DNA of 63,855 nucleotides from Candidatus Levyibacteriota bacterium (GCA_038205015.1 JBBRCK010000006.1:1-63855); one strand, 5' to 3'. Shown: positions 11,946 through 63,855, counted from the stretch's first letter. Program-made: numbers and translations. The notes: generated by a model from the sequence alone, not told the origin.

Positions 11946-12137
11946 CCCCTACCGATAAACAACACTAAGCACTGTTATTTTAATTTTTGGGCATCTTTTA
12001 GTCACAATCTGTTATCTGTAACAATATTTAGGGGTGACTTCTTCCTCCGTGAGGATATAAGTTTTCCTAACAATACATAGAACCCACTTTACCACAAAAA
12101 ATAAGATTAAATAAAAGATAATTACAATTTATCAAAA

Positions 12138-12495: not shown

Positions 12496-12554
12496 TTTTG
12501 AAGATAATTTGGCTCCAAGGAATTTACAACGTTAGAACCTATTTCATTGCTTAG
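12496..12554 (+). repeat. att-like scar S1 (tRNA-end copy with CCA + motif B)
   Basis: TTTTGAAGATAATTTGGCTCC...GTTAGAACCTAT; reads [18 protein letters not shown]. Confidence 0.65.
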
Positions 12555-13305
12555 GAGGTAAAGGTAAAAATACACTTGTTTGTTTTTTATATTTTTCAAA
12601 GTCTTGCCGTCCGGCGTATTTTTTTTCAAGAAGCGGCACACCAGAGACAAACAGAATTAAAATCGTAATCGTTATCGGTCCAATTATTGTAAACAGTCCA
12701 CTTGGAATAGCTAATGAAATAATAAATATTCCCCACCACATGGTTACTTCTCCAAAATAATTAGGGTGACGAGAATACTTCCAAAGACCCTCTTGCATTA
12801 CTTTCCCTTTATTTTCAGGCTTACTAATAAAATTAGATAATTGAGCATCTCCTGTGACTTCAAAATAAAAACCAACAAGCCAAACTGCGATCCCCAAAAT
12901 ACTAAGAATACTAAAACTTGACAGTTTAGAATTATTTATAAAAATAACAGGTATTGAAATTAAAAATAACATTAATCCCTGAAGCATAAATACCTGCAGA
13001 AAGCTACGAAAGTAAAAATTTTTCCATTCTTTTCGCCAAGCAAGATAACGTGAATCTTCCGGCTTACCCTTGTGTCTTTTATAAATATGCCACGCTAGAC
13101 GAACTCCCCAAATAGTAACAAGGATATTCACCAAGATGGAAAGAAGAGAAAATCCAGAAATTACAAATGAAATCCAAGCAAGAATTGGAAAACCCAATCC
13201 CCAGGCAATATCAGCAACATCATTTCTTTTTTTAATTATTGAGATAATAAACCAAAAAAACATATAAACAAATAAAATTGAGGCTAAGATGAGGTAAAAG
13301 TTCAT
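12544..13305 (-). CDS. DUF1295 membrane protein (steroid 5-alpha-reductase-like)
   Basis: [39 protein letters not shown]; ATG 13305 overlaps the upstream TGA (ATGA). Confidence 0.88.
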
Positions 13306-13706
13306 AGTCCCATTTTTGAAGCAATAAGATAAGCTATTGTAGAAACCGAAGCAGCCAAAATCGTTCCCCAAGCCATATCAACCAAAGATACTAAAAGAGG
13401 CCAATTTTTTAAGGTAGCAAGATTGGTCAAATCATAGGTAGCATATGTAAAAAATCCGAAAAGTGCACCAAAAACTAAAGCATAAACCCAAGAATGCTTT
13501 TCAACAGCCGGAGAAATAACAAATAATATAAGACCAACAATAAAAAGAAGATAAAAAGAAATTGCAGCTACCCAATTGACATTTGTCTTCATCAGTAAGC
13601 CTAGCTGCTCAGCGTAAAATTTTCTGGCAACTAAAGATAACCAAATCAAATCAATTGCGAAAAAGACTGGCAGGGTTATTGCATAAAGTTTTAAAAAGGA
13701 TTGCAT
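13302..13706 (-). CDS. DUF2177-family membrane protein
   Basis: [29 protein letters not shown]...VDMAWG; ATG 13706 follows TATAAT by 6 nt. Confidence 0.88.
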
Positions 13707-13731
13707 ATAACGATTATATGCAAATAAATTG

Positions 13732-14061
13732 CTAAATTCTACAATCACATCTCTTCTTATGCAAATTCTCTATTTGTTCCTTTATTGAATTAATTAATAT
13801 ATCTTGTTTTGCCAATCCGCGTGCTTGAGATTTAAGCAAGGGGCTTCTATGATTATATTTTCTTCTTTCCATTTCTTGCACTAAAAGCTCATGACGATTG
13901 TATAAAGCTTTTAGTTTTCCTTTCCAACGCAGTGTTTCGGGATGCTTGGAATACCCCTTTTTATCTTCGGTTATTACTACCCATAAAGCGTGTAACTCCC
14001 GATGCTCCCCTAATAAATGCTGTCTACAAAGAATAGATGGATGTAAATCCCAAATTCTCAT
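13732..14061 (-). CDS. Pyrimidine-dimer DNA glycosylase / T4 endonuclease V-like protein
   Basis: MRIW...LCRQHLLGEHRELH, HPETLRW, RHELLVQEMERRKYNH. Confidence 0.8.
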   Translation of the reverse strand: MRIWDLHPSILCRQHLLGEHRELHALWVVITEDKKGYSKHPETLRWKGKLKALYNRHELLVQEMERRKYNHRSPLLKSQARGLAKQDILINSIKEQIENLHKKRCDCRI

Positions 14062-14076
14062 TTTTAAATTATATCA

Positions 14077-14140
14077 TTTCGAGGCTATTTGGCTCCGCAG
14101 GATAATTATTTACCCTGAGAGTACCGAAAAGATATTATAA
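14077..14140 (+). repeat. att-like scar S2 (tRNA-end copy with CCA)
   Basis: TTTCGAGGCTATTTGGCTCCGC versus TTTTGAGGCTAATTTGCTCCGC at the tRNA end; reads FEAIWLRR... Confidence 0.65.
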
Positions 14141-14146
14141 TCTGGC

Positions 14147-14446
14147 TTAAATAGGACATGTATTTCTTCCGATTGCAGCATAAAATCCACACCATGAAAA
14201 CATTGCTTCAAACAAGGCAAATCCTGAAAAAAACAATAACATAAAATTGCTTGAAGAAAAACCAAGGATTAATAAAATTACTGAAATAGAAATTCTAAGT
14301 ATCTTGTCTGGTTTACCAATATTGGGATTTGCATTCTTTTTAAAATTCTTGGGGGCATATTTCTTTAATATAAATCTATAAGAAAAACCAAATATAAAAG
14401 CAGCAATATATGCAATTAAAAGTGTCTCCACAAGCTTATTATACAT
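14147..14446 (-). CDS. DUF2892 (YgaP-like) membrane protein
   Basis: NIGKPDKILR, EAMFSWCGFYAAIGRNTC. Confidence 0.8.
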   Translation of the reverse strand: MYNKLVETLLIAYIAAFIFGFSYRFILKKYAPKNFKKNANPNIGKPDKILRISISVILLILGFSSSNFMLLFFSGFALFEAMFSWCGFYAAIGRNTCPI

Positions 14447-14463
14447 GATGATTTTCGGAAAAC

Positions 14464-14498
14464 AATTTGCTTCGCGAGCCGAAGGGATGTTAAAACCT
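14464..14498 (+). repeat. att-like scar S3
   Basis: AATTTGCTTCGCGA-GCCGAAGGGATGTTAAAACCT; shares GCCGAAGGGATGTTA (15 bp) with S6. Confidence 0.7.
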
Positions 14499-14536
14499 AT
14501 TTTAAATATTGGCTAGAAGAACGAATGCAAGAAATA

Positions 14537-15721
14537 TTAATCCCCAAATGCATGAATAACCGGTTCCGGCCTAACGATTTTAAGTGAAATCAAAAAAGAT
14601 ATTATTGTTAGAACCGCTGCAACTATAAATGGCGAGGAAATAAGAATAGATGCCAAAAATCCTCCTGCAATCGGACCGATAATCTGCCCTATGCTCATAT
14701 AAGAAGAATTAAGACCCTGTACGGAACCCTGCGATTTTGCATCGGATTCCTGTGAAAGGATAGTCTGAATGAGTGGATTAATAAATGAATTTGTCAAAGC
14801 AAACAGCAATCCAAAAATTATGAATAACATAAAGCCCGTGAATAAATAAAGAGCCAGAAAAACAATTGAAAGTGCTAAAAATGAACGCGACAATAATTTT
14901 CTTACCCCAAAGCGCTTAGAAAGTCTTCCGATTAAAAATACCTGGGTCACTATTCCAATAAATCCTATTGCAGTAAAAAACAAAGATATCTGGGAAGGAG
15001 TAAAATGAAGAACCTTTATGGCATATGGCTGGAATGTTGTCACATACATTGAAAAAGTAATTGCGTAAACAAGGGAAATTGCAAGAACAAGACCAATATT
15101 CTGATCTTTTAGTGCAAGGAATAAGCTTTTGAAATCAAATAACTGTTTATTGTGAACTTGACCGATATTTTTATTCGTTTCAGGTAAGAGAAGCCATGTA
15201 AGAATGGTCGCTACAACGGAGATGATACCTGCAATAATAAAAGGGAGAGCCGGTGATATACCGTAAGTAAAAGCGGAGATTGCCGGACCGAAGAAAAAAC
15301 CGAAACCGAAAGAAGCTCCAATAACCCCAAATCCCTTTGCCCTATCTTTAGGCTCTGTTGAATCAGCTATTACAGCGGATGCTACCGGTAAATTTCCTGC
15401 AGTTGCTCCGTCAAGAGCTCTTGCTAAAAAAATAAATAAGGCACTCGGCGCAAAAGCCATCATAAAAAATGATAGTGCTGTTCCGGCGATAGACACCGTA
15501 AGAAGTGGTTTTCTACCGTATTTATCAGAAAGTCTTCCTATTAGAGGTGCCGATAAAAATTGGCATAATGAGAATAAGGCAAACAATAATCCATTTTGAA
15601 AAACTGAGAGGCCATATTTTAAAGAATAAGAATATAGTATAGGAATAATAATGCCGTAACCTAAAGCATTAACAACCGCAATTAGACCGATTATAAATAA
15701 TGTCCTATTATTTTTTAGCAT
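14537..15721 (-). CDS. MFS drug:H+ antiporter (DHA1/TetA-like)
   Basis: GRLSDKYGRKP motif A, ARALDG, GFFFGPAISA. Confidence 0.9.
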   Translation of the reverse strand: MLKNNRTLFIIGLIAVVNALGYGIIIPILYSYSLKYGLSVFQNGLLFALFSLCQFLSAPLIGRLSDKYGRKPLLTVSIAGTALSFFMMAFAPSALFIFLARALDGATAGNLPVASAVIADSTEPKDRAKGFGVIGASFGFGFFFGPAISAFTYGISPALPFIIAGIISVVATILTWLLLPETNKNIGQVHNKQLFDFKSLFLALKDQNIGLVLAISLVYAITFSMYVTTFQPYAIKVLHFTPSQISLFFTAIGFIGIVTQVFLIGRLSKRFGVRKLLSRSFLALSIVFLALYLFTGFMLFIIFGLLFALTNSFINPLIQTILSQESDAKSQGSVQGLNSSYMSIGQIIGPIAGGFLASILISSPFIVAAVLTIISFLISLKIVRPEPVIHAFGD

Positions 15722-15776
15722 GAATGTTTATTCTATAATAAAATAAAGTTAATTAAAATATAGAACACAAAATTAT

Positions 15777-15801
15777 GGGGCTAATTTGCTCTGTGGGTCG
15801 A
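15777..15801 (+). repeat. att-like scar S4 (tRNA-end copy only)
   Basis: GGCTAATTTGCTC identical (13 bp) to 20198-20210; then TGTGGGTCGA, similar to S6. Confidence 0.65.
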
Positions 15802-15839
15802 TCAAGAAACATTCGACATCATAGTTATATTATCCAGGC

Positions 15840-15900
15840 TTTGGCTCCAAGAGACGCAATATTCCTGAAAAGAATTGAAGGAGACGATGTTAGAATCTAT
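15840..15900 (+). repeat. att-like scar S5
   Basis: TTTGGCTCCAAG identical (12 bp) to S1; GACGATGTTAGAA at 15883-15895. Confidence 0.6.
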
Positions 15901-15907
15901 ATTGCTT

Positions 15908-16552
15908 TTAATCCCAGCTACAAACATAGCTTCCTTTTTTGATTTCTTGAAGTCCACTTGTTTCACTTTTTTCTCTTTTTCGCATTGATTCTTGCCCATA
16001 GAAATATTCAATTTCTTGCCTTATGCTATCTAATTGTCCATTATTCTCTAATTTCAAGATGACATCTTCTGCGGAAATTTTTTTAATTTTAGCTAATATT
16101 TCCTTTTTTTCTTTTTCTCCAACATCTTTAAAGCTACCAAGCATATATTGAAACAAAGCTATAATTCTAGGTAGATGATATTTATTAGTAAGTATACCCA
16201 TCGGGTTTTCTTGCTTCCAGAGTTTTTTTTCAGAAATGTAACTTATTATTGATTTTGCATTTCCACAGGTATTTCCAGGAACACAATAAAGTTTTTCAAT
16301 TGAATCTTTATCTACGTCGCTTGTAAAAAATGACTCCATTACGTCTGGCCTGAATTTTTTCCATTTTTCATTTTTCCCACCCACAATAACGATTTTCTTT
16401 GTTATCTTATCTTTAAGTAAAAGCTCTGCCGCTCTTATCCTAAATCCTTTATCGAGTGCTCCTGATTCATCTTCTAAAAGTAGTTTATATTTGCTATTTA
16501 ATTTAAAAAAATCGACTGATAAAAGAAAGACGATAGAATAATTAGATTTCAT
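15908..16552 (-). CDS. YdcF/DUF218-like protein
   Basis: IVIVGG, NTCGNA, ILTNKYHLPR match the DUF218 pattern. Confidence 0.6.
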   Translation of the reverse strand: MKSNYSIVFLLSVDFFKLNSKYKLLLEDESGALDKGFRIRAAELLLKDKITKKIVIVGGKNEKWKKFRPDVMESFFTSDVDKDSIEKLYCVPGNTCGNAKSIISYISEKKLWKQENPMGILTNKYHLPRIIALFQYMLGSFKDVGEKEKKEILAKIKKISAEDVILKLENNGQLDSIRQEIEYFYGQESMRKREKSETSGLQEIKKGSYVCSWD

Positions 16553-16570
16553 AAGAAGAAGTATATCAAA

Positions 16571-16619
16571 TTGAAGCTAATTTTGATCCGTGGGCCGAAG
16601 GGATGTTAGAACCTGCTTA
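16571..16619 (+). repeat. att-like scar S6
   Basis: TTGAAGCTAATTTTGATCCGTGG-GCCGAAGG-GATGTTAGAACCTGCTTA; last 18 bp identical to S8. Confidence 0.75.
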
Positions 16620-16651
16620 AGATTTACAAATTTTAATATATACTAAAATAT

Positions 16652-16945
16652 ATGCCCCATACGCTCAGGAGTAAAAAGGTAACTAAAAATAATAAACTTT
16701 TATATATCCTCGCATACTCTACTTCTGTAATTGGCCCATTCTTTGCTATTCCTCAAATATACGACATTATAATTAATAAAAACTCTCAAGGCATATCAAT
16801 TATAACCTGGGTGGGGTATTTGGGCGTTGCATTAATTTGGGCTTGGTATGGAATTGTTAAGAAAGATAAACTAATTATCTTTTGTAATGTATTGTGGGCA
16901 ATTTCTGAATTATTAGTTGTGACTACTGCTTTTATTTATAAATGA
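16652..16945 (+). CDS. SemiSWEET / PQ-loop family transporter
   Basis: FFAIPQIYDII...SQGISIITW, YGIVKKDKLIIFCN; three TMs. Confidence 0.8.
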   Translation: MPHTLRSKKVTKNNKLLYILAYSTSVIGPFFAIPQIYDIIINKNSQGISIITWVGYLGVALIWAWYGIVKKDKLIIFCNVLWAISELLVVTTAFIYK

Positions 16946-17099
16946 GCTCCCCAAGCCTAGACTCAATATACCCGAAAACAGACATAACTTTGATAATATT
17001 ATCCAAAGTTTCCAAAATCGAAGCTATATTGGGGAAATGAGACAAAGGTGGGAGGAAATTAAGAAATTGCAAGGAGAAACAAATATAATTTTAAACTAG
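16944..17099 (+). pseudogene. Headless coding fragment, probable recombinase C-terminal tail (scar S7)
   Basis: GAGCTCCCC resembles the tRNA-end motif, followed by an open frame ELPKPRLNIPENRHNF...YIGEMRQRWEEIKKLQ...* with no upstream start. Confidence 0.4.
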
Positions 17100-17107
17100 C
17101 ATTAGTG

Positions 17108-17452
17108 CTATTTGATTAAATCTAATAAAACCATAGCTTCATTATGTTCAGTATCTTTCGCGCCATACAAAAGAGTTATTTCTTTATAGTTTTTCTCTAA
17201 CTCTTTTAACTGGCTGAGTAACTCGTTTTTATCTTTCAATTCTTTTTTGTATCTTTTTTTAAATTCTTCCCATTTCTTTGGGTCATGACCAAACCATTTT
17301 CGTAATTCCGTACTTGGAGCAATTTCTCTCAGCCACAAATCTAAGCGTGCTTCCTCTTTTGATACACCTCTTGGCCAAAGCCTGTCAACAAGTATCCTAA
17401 ATCCGTCACTTTTTTCCTGTTCTTCGTAAATTCGTTTTATTTGGATCTTCAT
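17108..17452 (-). CDS. DUF488 (YeaO-like) protein
   Basis: IKRIYE...[18 protein letters not shown]...[22 protein letters not shown]. Confidence 0.9.
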
Positions 17453-17456
17453 AGAA

Positions 17457-18173
17457 CTAATATCCAGTATATTCTTCTGTTCTTATATTATCTTCGTTTA
17501 CATTTGCCTCTGTTAATATTTGCCTCATAGTTTTAACCATGCCTGCAGGACCAGAAAGATAGTAAATCGGGGTAGTTAAATCAGAGATATGCTTCTTAAG
17601 CATGTCCTTAGTAACATGTCCTGTTTCGCCTTTCCATTCCTGCGGTGTTAATCTAGTCATAACCGGAATAAAAGTGAAGTTCGGATTTCCTTTTGCGAAT
17701 GACTCCAAATCACTCAAGAACGCTGCATCTTTTTGTGTCTTGTTAGAATAGAAAAGGGTTATTTTATGCGGGAGCTTATCATGTGTTGCTTGAGCGATAA
17801 TGCTTCTTACGGTAGTAATACCGATACCGCCCGTTAAGAATACAGCGGGAATCTTTTCAGTCTTATGAAGTATAAAATCACCATATGGAGCGTCTAATTT
17901 TACTTCAGATCCAAGAGGCAAGTCCTTCAATACTCTTTTGAAGGCAGTGTCTCGCATGCGGGTTGCACTCATTAAGTCCTTTTCAAAGGGCGCTGACGCA
18001 AAAGAAAAGCCACGAATATCTCCCTCCTCATCTGTTTCTGATGGGTTCAAGAGTGTATAATCGGCAAACTGTCCTGCCCTAAAAGTAAACTCTTCAGGTT
18101 TCTCAAAATAAAAAGCCATCGTTTCATTGGCAATTTCTTCTTTTTTTAATAATTTTACGGTGTAAATCGGCAT
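17457..18173 (-). CDS. FAD/NAD(P)-binding oxidoreductase (ferredoxin-NADP reductase-like)
   Basis: [32 protein letters not shown]; ATG 18173 lies just after the regulator stop. Confidence 0.88.
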
Positions 18174-18177
18174 AGTT

Positions 18178-18483
18178 TTACTCCCAATGCTTGCATCCAT
18201 CAATACAATAAGCTCCGACGTGTTTTCTTATCAAGTTAAATAACGGTTGTATCGTCTCACTGTTTATTGCATAGATTCGCTCTTTACCGTCTCTCTCTAC
18301 CTCAACAAAGTGACAAAGCAGAAGCCGTTTCATGTCATGGGACACAGCAGATTGTTCAATCTCTAGCTTATCAGAAATAGATGATACACTTTGTTTTCCT
18401 TCTCTGTTTAAAAATTGCAGAATCTTCACCCGTTGCTTACTCCCAAGCACTGTGAAGAAGTCATCAAATGAATTATATATCAT
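18178..18483 (-). CDS. ArsR/SmtB-family transcriptional regulator
   Basis: RVKILQFL, SVSSISDKLEIEQSAVSHDMKRL, RDGKERIYAI. Confidence 0.85.
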   Translation of the reverse strand: MIYNSFDDFFTVLGSKQRVKILQFLNREGKQSVSSISDKLEIEQSAVSHDMKRLLLCHFVEVERDGKERIYAINSETIQPLFNLIRKHVGAYCIDGCKHWE

Positions 18484-18518
18484 ATGAATATGATATCATA
18501 TATTAATACCTGTGTCAA
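18477..18518 (-). promoter_or_regulatory. Promoter and probable autoregulatory operator of the ArsR-FNR-DUF488 operon
   Basis: TTGACA-17-TATCAT-6-ATG; inverted repeat ATATCATAT-GA-ATATGATAT (18477-18496) and palindrome ATATGATATCATAT (18488-18501). Confidence 0.65.
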
Positions 18519-18572
18519 GTTTTCCCGATAAATAATCTGTTGATATTATAATAAGAGGCCTTAGGCATCTCC

Positions 18573-18619
18573 CTTTTGAACCTAGCTCCGTGGGGATGGA
18601 CGATGTTAGAACCTGCTTA
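18573..18619 (+). repeat. att-like scar S8
   Basis: CTTTTGA...GCTCCGTGG...GACGATGTTAGAACCTG; 17 bp identical to S9. Confidence 0.75.
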
Positions 18620-18638
18620 TCTCAGGAAAAATCAACTT

Positions 18639-18878
18639 TTAAAACAGTCTAGCAACAAAAAGTACAACTAGAGAACCTGCAATTGCCACTATAAATGATG
18701 TCATATTGAAACCTGTTACTCCAACATTAAAAAACATTTCTCCTAAATAACCACCTACCACTGCTCCAACAATGCCTAGAATAATTGACCCTATAATTCC
18801 TCCTCTGGAGCTAGGTGCAATAAAATTGGCAATACTACCTGCAATTAATCCAAAAATTATCCAATAAAGAATACTCAT
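18639..18878 (-). CDS. GlsB/YeaQ/YmgE-family membrane protein
   Basis: WIIFGLIAGSIA...IILGIVGAVVGG...SFIVAIAGS; SD GAGGTG. Confidence 0.9.
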   Translation of the reverse strand: MSILYWIIFGLIAGSIANFIAPSSRGGIIGSIILGIVGAVVGGYLGEMFFNVGVTGFNMTSFIVAIAGSLVVLFVARLF

Positions 18879-18923
18879 ATTTCTTCACCTCACTTCTTGT
18901 CACAATAATCAATCTAAAGAAAA

Positions 18924-19319
18924 CTAATCAGATTTTCTTTCGCCCGACAATATTTTAAGCAACATTACAATTCCCCAAGCAATAACAGTATATGCAATTA
19001 ATGCTACTATGGTTGATGGCTCTAATACTGCAGTTGTTTCTACGCCTTGCGTATAACCTTGATGAAATATTCCCTGAAAAGGGAGAATAAAAATTCCAGT
19101 CAAACCGTAGATTAATCCGACAAATGCACTTCCTGGATTAGCACCTGTTAACTTCAGTATTAAACGAGAAACTAGAAGAATATCTAAAAGTCCAAACATA
19201 AAATAGATCAAGTATTGAATAGTTTGGTAACTAGATGCTTGTCTTTTGGTTTCAGTAGTTACAGACTCTTTCGGACCATCACTCTGAGTAGTTACAGACT
19301 CTTTTACAATTTCAGCCAT
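18924..19319 (-). CDS. YggT-like membrane protein
   Basis: RLILKLTGANPGSAFV...IYGLT..FILPFQGIF, LEPSTIVALIAY; SD GGGGGTGA. Confidence 0.7.
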   Translation of the reverse strand: MAEIVKESVTTQSDGPKESVTTETKRQASSYQTIQYLIYFMFGLLDILLVSRLILKLTGANPGSAFVGLIYGLTGIFILPFQGIFHQGYTQGVETTAVLEPSTIVALIAYTVIAWGIVMLLKILSGERKSD

Positions 19320-19403
19320 AATTTTTCACCCCCTTTATTTTTATAATTTAATAAATTTAGCTCTTATCGCAATATCCTAAGGAAAAAATTTGACTTAATT
19401 AAA

Positions 19404-19613
19404 TTAAAGTTTAACTTCAGGCTTTTTAATTATTGTTTCTTTAGGTAGGAAGTTAATTAAAGCTTTTTCAACCAGAGTGGTTAAGCTTATTCCCTCAACT
19501 ACAGCTTGAGCTCTTGTTTGCTTAACTAAATCAGGATTAAGGAAAAGTGTAGTTCGTTGTTTTATATTAGTTGTTATACTACATATAGTAGTACTAGTTG
19601 TAACAGTTATCAA
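19404..19613 (-). CDS. Small ribbon-helix-helix-like DNA-binding protein (start uncertain)
   Basis: QRTTLFLNPDLVKQTRAQAVVEGISLTTLVEKAL fits a beta-alpha-alpha pattern. Confidence 0.55.
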   Translation of the reverse strand: MITVTTSTTICSITTNIKQRTTLFLNPDLVKQTRAQAVVEGISLTTLVEKALINFLPKETIIKKPEVKL

Positions 19614-19623
19614 TGACCAATAA

Positions 19624-19715
19624 CTTTTGAGGCTAATTTGCTCCGCGAGATAGTCCTGCTGACGCTGGATTCGCTTCGGCTCGACGATGTTAGAACCTGT
19701 TTTATATTATTGTAA
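19624..19715 (+). repeat. att-like scar S9 (tRNA-proximal)
   Basis: CTTTTGAGGCTAATTTGCTCCGCGA (19624-19648) is a perfect 25-bp copy of 20191-20215; motif B at 19683-19699; reads LLRE...LDDVRTCFILL*. Confidence 0.85.
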
Positions 19716-20169
19716 ACTTGATCTTGGGGTGCCCAGTTAGTTCGTCTACTACATCAATATATAGGTCAGGATATTTAGCCCTATATTCCCGTATTTTTTG
19801 TATTTCTTCTTTAACATCCTGTTCATATCCTGAAAACGAAATACTATTTATGTTGATTGCTATCTCTTCATACTCCTTTTGTAATTTATCTACATGCCCC
19901 TTAAGATTTGCTGGAGTACTTGAAAATCCTAATCCATGAGTTATATCTTTTGCCAAACCTCTTCCGAATGTTCGTTCATATTCAATAAATAAGTCTTTAT
20001 GGAATGATTGAGGTCCTAATGGCCATTCAGATTTTACTATTTGGCCTGTTGAAGTTCTAAACAATTGTCCTTCTAAATAGACTAAAGGTGGATGTCCCTT
20101 CGGATTAAATAATTCAGAAGATGGGTGCTCTACGACATTAGTTTTTAATAGTTCTTTCCCATCATCCAT
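19702..20169 (-). CDS. Hypothetical protein (first cassette cargo)
   Basis: 155-aa ORF between the tRNA end and S9; TGATATAAT-6-ATG. Confidence 0.6.
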   Translation of the reverse strand: MDDGKELLKTNVVEHPSSELFNPKGHPPLVYLEGQLFRTSTGQIVKSEWPLGPQSFHKDLFIEYERTFGRGLAKDITHGLGFSSTPANLKGHVDKLQKEYEEIAININSISFSGYEQDVKEEIQKIREYRAKYPDLYIDVVDELTGHPKIKFTII

Positions 20170-20207
20170 AAAATTATTATATCAGATGTGCTTTTGAGGC
20201 TAATTTG

Positions 20208-20279
20208 CTCCGCGACTAGGACTCGAACCTAGAACCTTGTCGTTAACAGCGACCTGCTCTACCATTGAGCTATCACGGA
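20208..20279 (-). tRNA. tRNA-Asn (GTT), CCA not encoded
   Basis: TCCGTGA...TCGCGGA-G acceptor stem, GGTCG-CTGTTAA-CGAC anticodon arm, GGTTCGAGTCC T-arm. Confidence 0.95.
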
Positions 20280-20370
20280 ATATTTTAATTTCGCATTAAC
20301 CCTGCTTTACCACCTACAGGCTTTCACAGAATACAAAATGAATTATATCGTGTATGGGAAAGTTTGTAAA

Positions 20371-63468: not shown

Positions 63469-63855
<387 letters not shown>

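Follow-up and report, generated by a model that had tools for sequence, protein, structure and literature searches.

How did a row of small gene cassettes, with no recombinase gene among them, come to stand behind a single tRNA gene? The question is raised by a 63,855-nt stretch of DNA from Candidatus Levyibacteriota bacterium (GCA_038205015.1 JBBRCK010000006.1:1-63855; "the window" below means this whole stretch), in which positions 12,496 to 20,279 hold a tRNA-Asn gene and, downstream of it, a ladder of short repeats. Bacteria of the Candidate Phyla Radiation (CPR, Patescibacteria) have tiny genomes, few recognised mobile elements, and strong strain heterogeneity. A first-pass annotation of the window had proposed that small non-autonomous circles were serially integrated at the tRNA 3' end, with the recombinase supplied in trans. 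From comparisons across more than 200 loci, we arrive at a reading to which we give a probability of roughly 60%: a tandem array of seven recombinase-less cassettes, accreted at the tRNA-Asn 3' end by large serine recombinases (LSRs) acting in trans. More tentatively, and at slightly less than even odds, we suggest that such arrays may form an integron-like gene-capture platform spanning CPR lineages, in which promoter-bearing cassettes, most of them with a single gene and with a conserved tRNA-mimic half-site, would be captured, reshuffled, and lost at tRNA 3' ends through LSRs acting in trans.

A conserved unit closes each cassette of the array

Seven small cassettes lie downstream of tRNA-Asn, each with one to four genes and each ending in a unit (Table 1). 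In tRNA orientation every junction has the same order, namely a stop codon, AAAC-AGGTTCTAACATC..., a short variable stretch, ...CGGAGC, often AAATTAGCCTCAAAA, and the next gene. Motif B and the left part of motif A, listed in the first-pass annotation as two repeats, therefore belong to one 33-nt unit, AAAC-AGGTTCTAACATCGTCCA-N5-CGGAGC, which joins motif B to the tRNA-end-like part of motif A. Its conserved core, besides CGGAGC, is AGGTTCTAAC. Set against the tRNA (AGGTTCTAGGTTCGAGTCCTAGTCGCGGAGC), the unit is a copy, 2 nt shorter and with the T-stem destroyed, of the stretch of tRNA-Asn that runs from the variable loop through the T-arm to the acceptor 3' strand.

To describe the unit independently of this locus, a sequence model (R1) was built from 143 copies, all from other organisms and none from the window, and the whole 64 kb was scanned with filters off at a threshold of E<=0.01. 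Exactly six matches were found, all on the minus (tRNA) strand within 12526-19703, and they are the six motif B sites of the first-pass annotation (Table 1). Units thus occur in the array only and are not scattered over the window. As a plain string on the plus strand, motif B (GATGTTAGAACCTG) is exact at 16602, 18602, and 19686, has two mismatches at 14486 and 15886 and three at 12528, and has no other site with two or fewer mismatches in the 64 kb. R1 scores roughly fall from the tRNA outward, which preserves part of an earlier claim that conservation decays with distance, but what varies in the A part belongs for the most part to the cassettes themselves and does not reflect decay.

Motif A fared less evenly. 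In gapped local alignments of the 25-mer described below, for which the best score outside the array is 25, the copies ending at 12516, 14098, 15791, and 16590 score 27-32; the copy at 14477 scores 24, borderline by itself, and abuts a motif B copy, while those at 18573 and 15840 are recognisable solely by their position beside motif B. A further weak copy proposed at 16944 is supported by neither the R1 scan nor the 25-mer alignment, and with no unit found here, the SemiSWEET gene (16652-16945, + strand) is not separately delimited, as had been supposed, and falls within cassette 3. All repeat copies in the window are intergenic, as first reported, and the inter-unit intervals measure 0.32-1.97 kb, a somewhat wider range than the 0.35-1.65 kb given at first.

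The array is anchored at tRNA-Asn, which has dnaG and rpoD directly upstream. The 25-mer CTTTTGAGGCTAATTTGCTCCGCGA occurs exactly twice in the window, at 19624-19648 and 20191-20215, against 0 expected from shuffles, so that, as in tRNA islands, a tRNA 3' segment is directly repeated while the tRNA itself is intact (65.4 bits). In the long-form unit 1, the core is followed by an insert of 24-33 nt and then by TCGCGGAGC at 19640-19648, within copy 2 of this repeat. An additional orphan tRNA-end-like copy lies beside unit 4, at 15775-15797. Cassette 3 has its own promoter, TTGACA-17-TATCAT, at 18518-18490. Unit 7 is the last recognisable unit, and the MscL gene comes next. The annotated picture of a co-oriented ladder anchored at the tRNA-Asn 3' end is thus upheld, as is the absence of an integrase or other recombinase from the array: Pfam gave no match to Phage_integrase or any other recombinase among 40 window open reading frames (ORFs), including every array ORF, and neither a recombinase family match among the 26 ORFs tested outside the array nor a recombinase fragment within its 8 kb was found.

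Table 1. Features of the tRNA-Asn array and of the tRNA-Ser locus in the window
Feature	Position	Strand	R1 match	Content and remarks
tRNA-Asn(gtt)	20207-20279	-		ARAGORN; Rfam tRNA 65.4 bits; array anchor
25-bp repeat, copy 1	20191-20215	-		The tRNA's final 9 nt and 16 nt of flank; read in tRNA orientation as AAATTAGCCTCAAAAG
Cassette 1 (newest)	19703-20190	-		155-aa protein of unknown fold, ORF 19702-20169; extended -10 TGATATAAT at 20176-20184
Unit 1, long form	19640-19702	-	19683-19703; 24.7 bits, E=1.1e-6	Core 19683-19703
Cassette 2	18619-19639	-		69-aa ORF; YGGT-like 18924-19319; Transgly_assoc/GlsB 18639-18878 (Pfam)
Unit 2, canonical short form	18585-18618	-	18592-18618; 28.9 bits, E=5e-8	AGGTTCTAACATCGTCCATCCCCACGGAGC
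Cassette 3	16619-18584	-		ArsR-type helix-turn-helix 18178-18483; FNR-like NAD_binding_1 17457-18203; DUF488 17108-17452
Unit 3	16585-16618	-	16602-16619; 15.2 bits, E=0.0012	Adjoining A copy scores 27
Cassette 4	15904-16584	-		DUF218-like 214-aa protein 15908-16552
Unit 4, long form	15843-15903	-	15882-15903; 17.9 bits	A copy scores 30
Cassette 5	14503-15774	-		MFS transporter 14537-15721
Unit 5	14469-14502	-	14486-14503; 12.3 bits, E=0.0099	
Cassette 6	14149-14468	-		YgaP-like transmembrane protein 14147-14446
Unit 6	14091-14148	-		Core degenerate (3 mismatches); tRNA-end-like part clear; A copy scores 32
Cassette 7	12545-14090	-		Pyr_excise 13732-14061; DUF2177 13302-13748; DUF1295 12544-13371
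Unit 7 and flank copy	12511-12544 (unit); 12496-12510 (flank)	-	12526-12544; 15.0 bits	A copy scores 29
tRNA-Ser(gga)	63517-63606	+		Converges with LSR C-terminus
LSR C-terminal ~83 codons	63607-63855	-		Cut by window end; 52% identity over 91 aa to the LSR of locus L103

The unit is shared by many CPR lineages

The repeats had been taken for scars of this particular tRNA. They are instead copies of one conserved unit that is found in many CPR lineages and with several tRNA types. Among Levybacteria it lies downstream of tRNA-Asn, on the same strand, in seven loci (L003, L012, L015, L018, L044, L056, and L071), and in loci containing tRNA-Asn nine of ten unit matches have this placement. Two of these loci have ladders of their own with other genes, NUDIX and SET in L003, a kinase-like protein and DUF1428 in L018. 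At least 120 metagenome loci matched the 18-nt core in a scan, with some single matches expected by chance; the 18-mer misses a second unit subtype, and unit counts are therefore underestimates. That subtype was noticed in locus L146 (1943-1974 and 3922-3953) as AATAGTTCTAAATGCGTCCTGT..GGGGAGC, where it precedes a conserved terminator, AAAATCGCC..GGCGGTTTTTTGGTAGAAT.

Conservation extends beyond the search pattern, with AAAC before the core in about 80% of copies and CGGAGC after N5 in 55-75%. It begins at -4 and ends abruptly after GGAGC, the position that matches the tRNA end, and the changes that destroy the T-stem are identical across many CPR lineages. By type, the acceptor-like part resembles the end of tRNA-Asn most commonly, and otherwise those of tRNA-Gln, tRNA-His, tRNA-Ser, or others.

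Units are intergenic in 206 of 234 cases and co-oriented in every locus that has two or more of them (54/54), and the genes beside them mostly share this orientation (152:33 upstream, 140:43 downstream). The intervals between units are short (median 763 nt, n=101), 62 of the 101 hold one ORF, and grouping of the 155 cassette ORFs gave 154 families. Cassettes that are co-oriented, mostly have one ORF, and match those of integrons in size and diversity could belong to a classical integron or to a CALIN, a cluster of attC sites without an integron integrase. To this explanation we give next to no credence, in agreement with the first-pass view that the array is not an attC/IntI system: the 40 window ORFs include no match to IntI or another tyrosine recombinase, the conserved repeat is linear and lacks the R''/L''-L'/R' hairpin, the cassettes bear promoters of their own, and the array is anchored at a tRNA. 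The likeness of GTTAGAA / AAC to R'/R'' is superficial in a unit without a hairpin. A dif/Xer-like site was likewise rejected on inspection, there being no inverted arms around a 6-bp spacer.

Units stand just after stop codons, in the orientation of the genes, and often have a terminator and next a promoter behind them, as might be expected of a cis-acting expression signal (a 3'-UTR, terminator-associated, or tRNA-like processing element) whose clustering reflects where accessory genes are located. We consider this very improbable. RNAalifold predicted zero pairs on 143 units, Rfam searches matched the tRNA gene alone and not the unit, and with its T-stem destroyed the unit is not a tRNA-like fold. 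Nor would a signal of this kind account for the confinement of units to one 8-kb stretch of 64 kb, beside a tRNA, for their association with the 3' ends of LSR genes, or for the coincidence of population break points with units, both described below.

Some unit pairs are merely 34-79 nt apart and enclose "empty" cassettes (L168, L170, L122, L159, L127, and L141, and also a joint 983->4914 in L146), which simple unit-by-unit recombination does not explain. In viral contigs, one of seven exact core matches is a real unit, beside phage structural genes (L081); the other six are coincidences in coding sequence. At 14690-14730 of L081, an IMG/VR contig with terminase, portal, and capsid genes, the contig ends in a canonical unit beside host-like genes, and it may be a CPR prophage adjoining an array. 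An apparent 2.3-kb circular contig (L179) was set aside, its "unit" being another coding-sequence coincidence.

Cassette content changes at the units

Comparison of relatives, one of the checks suggested at the outset, showed a conserved backbone upstream and different content downstream. The purA-dnaG-rpoD synteny upstream of tRNA-Asn is kept in about 75 of 80 Levybacteria species, and the window cassette genes are almost never present downstream of tRNA-Asn in those 80 species; the DUF2177+DUF1295 pair of cassette 7 also lies downstream of tRNA-Asn in L018. Between loci L130 and L195 the backbone is 94% identical, the cassettes are entirely different, and homology returns only at the units. 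L099 and L129, downstream of tRNA-Asn, likewise share a backbone and differ in cassettes, and homology blocks between loci stop at unit edges. Gains and losses fall at the repeats, as the first-pass annotation would have it. In addition, several assemblies of relatives end exactly at the tRNA-Asn 3' end (L001, L060, and L074) or about 50-650 nt past it (L009, L019, L059, and L070), the outcome expected from strain-variable content downstream.

Individual cassettes recur in other settings. In L217, a homologue of the window cassette 1 gene (65% identity) is flanked by a unit on either side and has different neighbours, a change of array position that favours the first-pass interpretation, and a cassette ORF of L146 (4425-4844) recurs in the L199 array with 82% amino acid identity. 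The leader is the same in L217 and in the window (TTTAGCC.CAAAA...CTGATATAATAAT...ATG), and since TTAGCC sits 16-17 nt from TGATATAAT in both homologous cassettes, it may double as a -35 element. A reading of this flank motif as a promoter only was discarded, as it was not enriched in a promoter scan and does not explain the units.

Population data, which consist of contigs from public runs and not raw reads, add to this picture. Twenty-four runs contain different fractions of the L146 array, one of its cassettes has zero depth in four runs in which its flanks are covered, and the contig joints lie at unit ends. The cassette behind L146 unit 4 also occurs behind a different unit, and a population of higher abundance has it immediately after the T-arm and acceptor of a genuine tRNA.

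Break points within or at units, the conservation of units plus about 100 nt between otherwise different cassettes (in the L130/L195 comparison), and the lack of a linked recombinase in most arrays would also be compatible with exchange that needs no dedicated recombinase, the unit with its conserved terminator and promoter serving as portable homology by which natural transformation and RecA swap, insert, and delete cassettes. We regard this as improbable, since it leaves unexplained the 33-nt conservation across distant lineages, the mimicry of a tRNA end, the start of arrays at tRNA 3' ends, and the LSR genes that abut units and tRNAs at the same junction position. Moreover, RecA-dependent exchange would have very little to act on in an invariant core of 18-20 nt.

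Large serine recombinases abut tRNAs and units at the same junction

Clustering of the ORFs in the fetched loci brought out a family of 490-580 aa that consists of LSRs (Pfam Resolvase, Recombinase, and Zn_ribbon_recom). The family emerged only from clustering because a survey of ORFs near units had excluded those above 430 aa; that survey, of 296 representative ORFs of 170-430 aa within 5 kb, found no recurring tyrosine or small serine recombinase family. LSR genes converge on the tRNA-Asn 3' end in 11 of 80 Levybacteria loci, three of them with a group I intron in the tRNA, and on tRNA-Trp in L156, while in two metagenome loci (L088 and L103) they converge on a unit and not a tRNA. In L044 and L056 an LSR element precedes the units, in L088 and L103 a unit adjoins the LSR 3' end, and the window array has units only. 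Recombinase-less elements with the same att sequences thus stand in tandem with autonomous ones or replace them. From these gene positions, the LSR family that abuts tRNA-Asn or units in relatives is likely the trans-acting enzyme. The LSR query gave no match in viral contigs.

In L099 (10444-10747), and also in L011, L014, and L065, the tRNA-Asn anticodon loop upstream of LSR genes is split by a group I intron of about 250 nt, recognised by its CAGAGACTA...GATAGTCC motifs. ARAGORN misses these tRNA-Asn genes because of the intron.

The window itself ends in a partial LSR gene that lies 43 kb from the array, is not part of it, and suggests that an LSR element is integrated at tRNA-Ser in this genome. 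Compared with the junction of unit and LSR in L103, its junction with tRNA-Ser has the same sequence to the right, beginning with the acceptor strand's first base (CTCTCCGCCAATTT...); to the left, the window has a T-arm where L103 has the unit core. At tRNA-Asn, the tRNA position of this switch is also the one where the 25-bp repeat starts. These comparisons place the switch at tRNA position 66 or further right, and the L146 contigs place it further right still, within or just left of CGGAGC. Such a pattern is expected of a tRNA that provides the B half-site and a unit that provides the P half-site, with exchange right at the tRNA's end.

An alternative is that the array is the wreckage of full-size autonomous islands at tRNA-Asn, of the LSR or tyrosine-integrase kind and in tandem as in tycheposon or Islander-type arrays, which lost the recombinase and most of their cargo, so that the cassettes would not be individually mobile. 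Relatives do have multi-kb LSR elements at tRNA-Asn, L056 and L044 have an LSR element and then units, L071 keeps a 58-nt LSR-side flank followed by a unit without any LSR, and L003 has a genuine displaced 14-nt tRNA end; tycheposon islands show exactly such decay (bioRxiv 10.1101/2020.12.28.424599). However, the 8 kb of the array contain no recombinase fragments, their ORFs are intact and tightly packed with one unit per 0.3-2 kb, and single ORFs predominate between units elsewhere. The leader-gene-unit module also recurs in different arrays, which would require repeated identical deletions. We therefore consider decayed islands unlikely.

Proposed mechanism and points that weigh against it

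In the scheme that we favour, accretion by LSRs in trans, a cassette would begin with a short leader, which often bears a promoter, continue with its one to four genes, and end in the unit. The unit would provide the "P" half-site and crossover region of an attachment site for a CPR LSR family, the chromosomal "B" half-site being the tRNA's own variable loop, T-arm, and acceptor strand, and strand exchange would take place within CGGAGC or just to its left, right where the tRNA ends. With exchange at this position, the tRNA would stay intact and a usable target would be kept or regained, and each newcomer would therefore enter beside the tRNA and displace older cassettes outward. An autonomous LSR element, located elsewhere in the genome or in the community, would supply the enzyme in trans. 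The action of LSRs on the units, the crossover position, and circular cassette intermediates are our inferences.

Several observations weigh against this scheme. The window was found in one run, as contigs only, with an identical array and neither a circular junction nor an empty site. No LSR of the Asn type is visible in the 64 kb, the sole partial LSR being at tRNA-Ser, and LSR genes were found in only 3 of about 120 metagenome loci identified through the unit, among the matches listed, many of which are short. To the right of the junction, the TTAG-type motif is spaced from GGAGC by about 4 nt in the window cassettes and by about 17 nt in LSR elements, so that the right half-sites of cassettes and LSR elements are not equivalent. 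For a single recombinase family it is unusual that one unit core should be joined to Asn-, Gln-, His-, and Ser-like ends, and taxonomy is settled for a minority of the metagenome loci. Finally, the partner of attP in recombination by canonical LSRs is attB and not attL; for integration to recur at one tRNA, either an attB-like site must be regenerated or the enzyme must be promiscuous, like Ccr.

If the platform is real, it would generate much of the strain-level gene variability in reduced CPR genomes. It would explain their flexible-gene sites, which hold transporters, repair enzymes, methyltransferases, and toxin and defence genes, the assemblies of relatives that break at tRNA-Asn, and the movement of DNA that has no recombinase. 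It would also mean that an integron-like architecture can be reached in a second way, by an independent mechanism built on a serine recombinase, a double-strand site, and a tRNA anchor. Its LSR/att pairs would have a constant donor arm and a crossover-proximal part that tracks the target tRNA, which would be of interest for recombinase specificity and genome engineering, and the 33-nt unit would serve as a simple marker in any CPR metagenome.

Relation to known systems

In function and enzyme class, the closest analogue appears to be the composite island of staphylococcal cassette chromosome (SCC) elements at rlmH, with its ccr-less pseudo-SCC members. Like the window array, SCC elements insert at the 3' end of a conserved housekeeping gene, rlmH in their case, without destroying it, and form tandem arrays in which directly repeated copies of the attachment core mark the borders. 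Recombinase-less members (pseudo-SCC and ACME, short for arginine catabolic mobile element) that stand beside recombinase-bearing ones are thought to be mobile in trans, as the window cassettes may be, and the SCC enzymes CcrAB and CcrC are LSRs, the class proposed here. In contrast, the target here is a tRNA (Asn; elsewhere also Ser, Trp, and probably Gln and His), the elements measure 0.3-2 kb with one to four genes as against 3-60 kb for SCC, the site has a conserved 20-nt tRNA-mimic arm common to several tRNA specificities, and the host is a CPR bacterium whose array is known from sequence alone. Parts of this comparison draw on bioRxiv 10.1101/336396, bioRxiv 10.64898/2026.03.31.715619, and PMC5964201.

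Tycheposon islands of Prochlorococcus and tandem tRNA islands (Islander) integrate at tRNA genes, and their elements are separated solely by partial tRNA copies, according to bioRxiv 10.1101/2020.12.28.424599 and PMC4383910. They resemble the window array in tRNA anchoring, in the outward displacement of older elements by newcomers, and in serving as reservoirs of flexible genes. However, each of their elements has its own integrase and their repeats are true tRNA copies, whereas none of the seven intervals in the window has a recombinase domain, the elements are of much smaller size, and the repeat is a mimic, diverged from the tRNA but conserved.

Integrons and CALINs, the latter being arrays without an adjacent integrase, share with the window co-oriented and mostly single-ORF cassettes, extreme gene diversity, and a fixed entry point at one end. 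They differ in using the tyrosine recombinase IntI and a folded attC hairpin, whereas the site here is a double-strand motif, the cassettes have their own promoters, and entry is at a tRNA 3' end. Xer-dependent modules (integrative mobile elements exploiting Xer, IMEX, at dif; pdif modules of Acinetobacter) are small, lack their own recombinase, are bounded by short sites, and are moved by enzymes encoded elsewhere. Such recombinase-less modules, which integrate serially at one chromosomal site, are similar in these respects, but the unit has no XerC/XerD-type dyad with a 6-bp spacer, its orientation is uniform and not alternating, and the associated genes encode LSRs and not Xer. In an incomplete literature collection we found no paper with the unit sequence or with LSR-linked cassette arrays at CPR tRNAs, and nothing relevant on CPR tRNAs with an integrase or serine recombinase or on integron-like LSR arrays.

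Cassette proteins and minor observations at the locus

The 155-aa protein of cassette 1 has no Pfam, PDB-sequence, or fold match (AlphaFold2, AF2, model with pLDDT 80). It was considered as a recombinase and dismissed, having no match of these kinds and being encoded by an ordinary internal cassette in L217. Further homologues, in L209 (7987-8519), L211, L212, and L213 (7925-8465), begin at a distance of 4-5 nt from tRNA-Gln(ctg), on its downstream side, with AspRS, GluRS, and DAGK genes upstream. An invariant EYERTFGRG motif marks the family, and its AF2 model is confident. The DUF218-like protein of cassette 4 has no homologue at E<=1e-10 among 5.8 billion proteins.

In run X1, a 72-nt contig, at about half the depth of the main contig, joins the 5' half of tRNA-Asn (3 mismatches, as far as position 34) to the DUF218 cassette's leader (window 16585/20246); it may come from the intron-containing or rearranged tRNA of a related strain. 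Upstream of tRNA-Asn, at 20342-20370, TTTAGGCTAATTT is an inverted near-copy of the downstream flank motif AAATTAGCCT, with an alignment score of 24 that is within background, and it adjoins the upstream side of the -35 of the tRNA-Asn promoter (TTTACA-17-TATAAT). At the far end of the array, between MscL and the next gene, the sequence at 12040-12095 (CTTCCTCCGTGAGG...CATAGAACCCAC) resembles a very degenerate unit, and the array may once have extended beyond 12496, with MscL as an older cassette.

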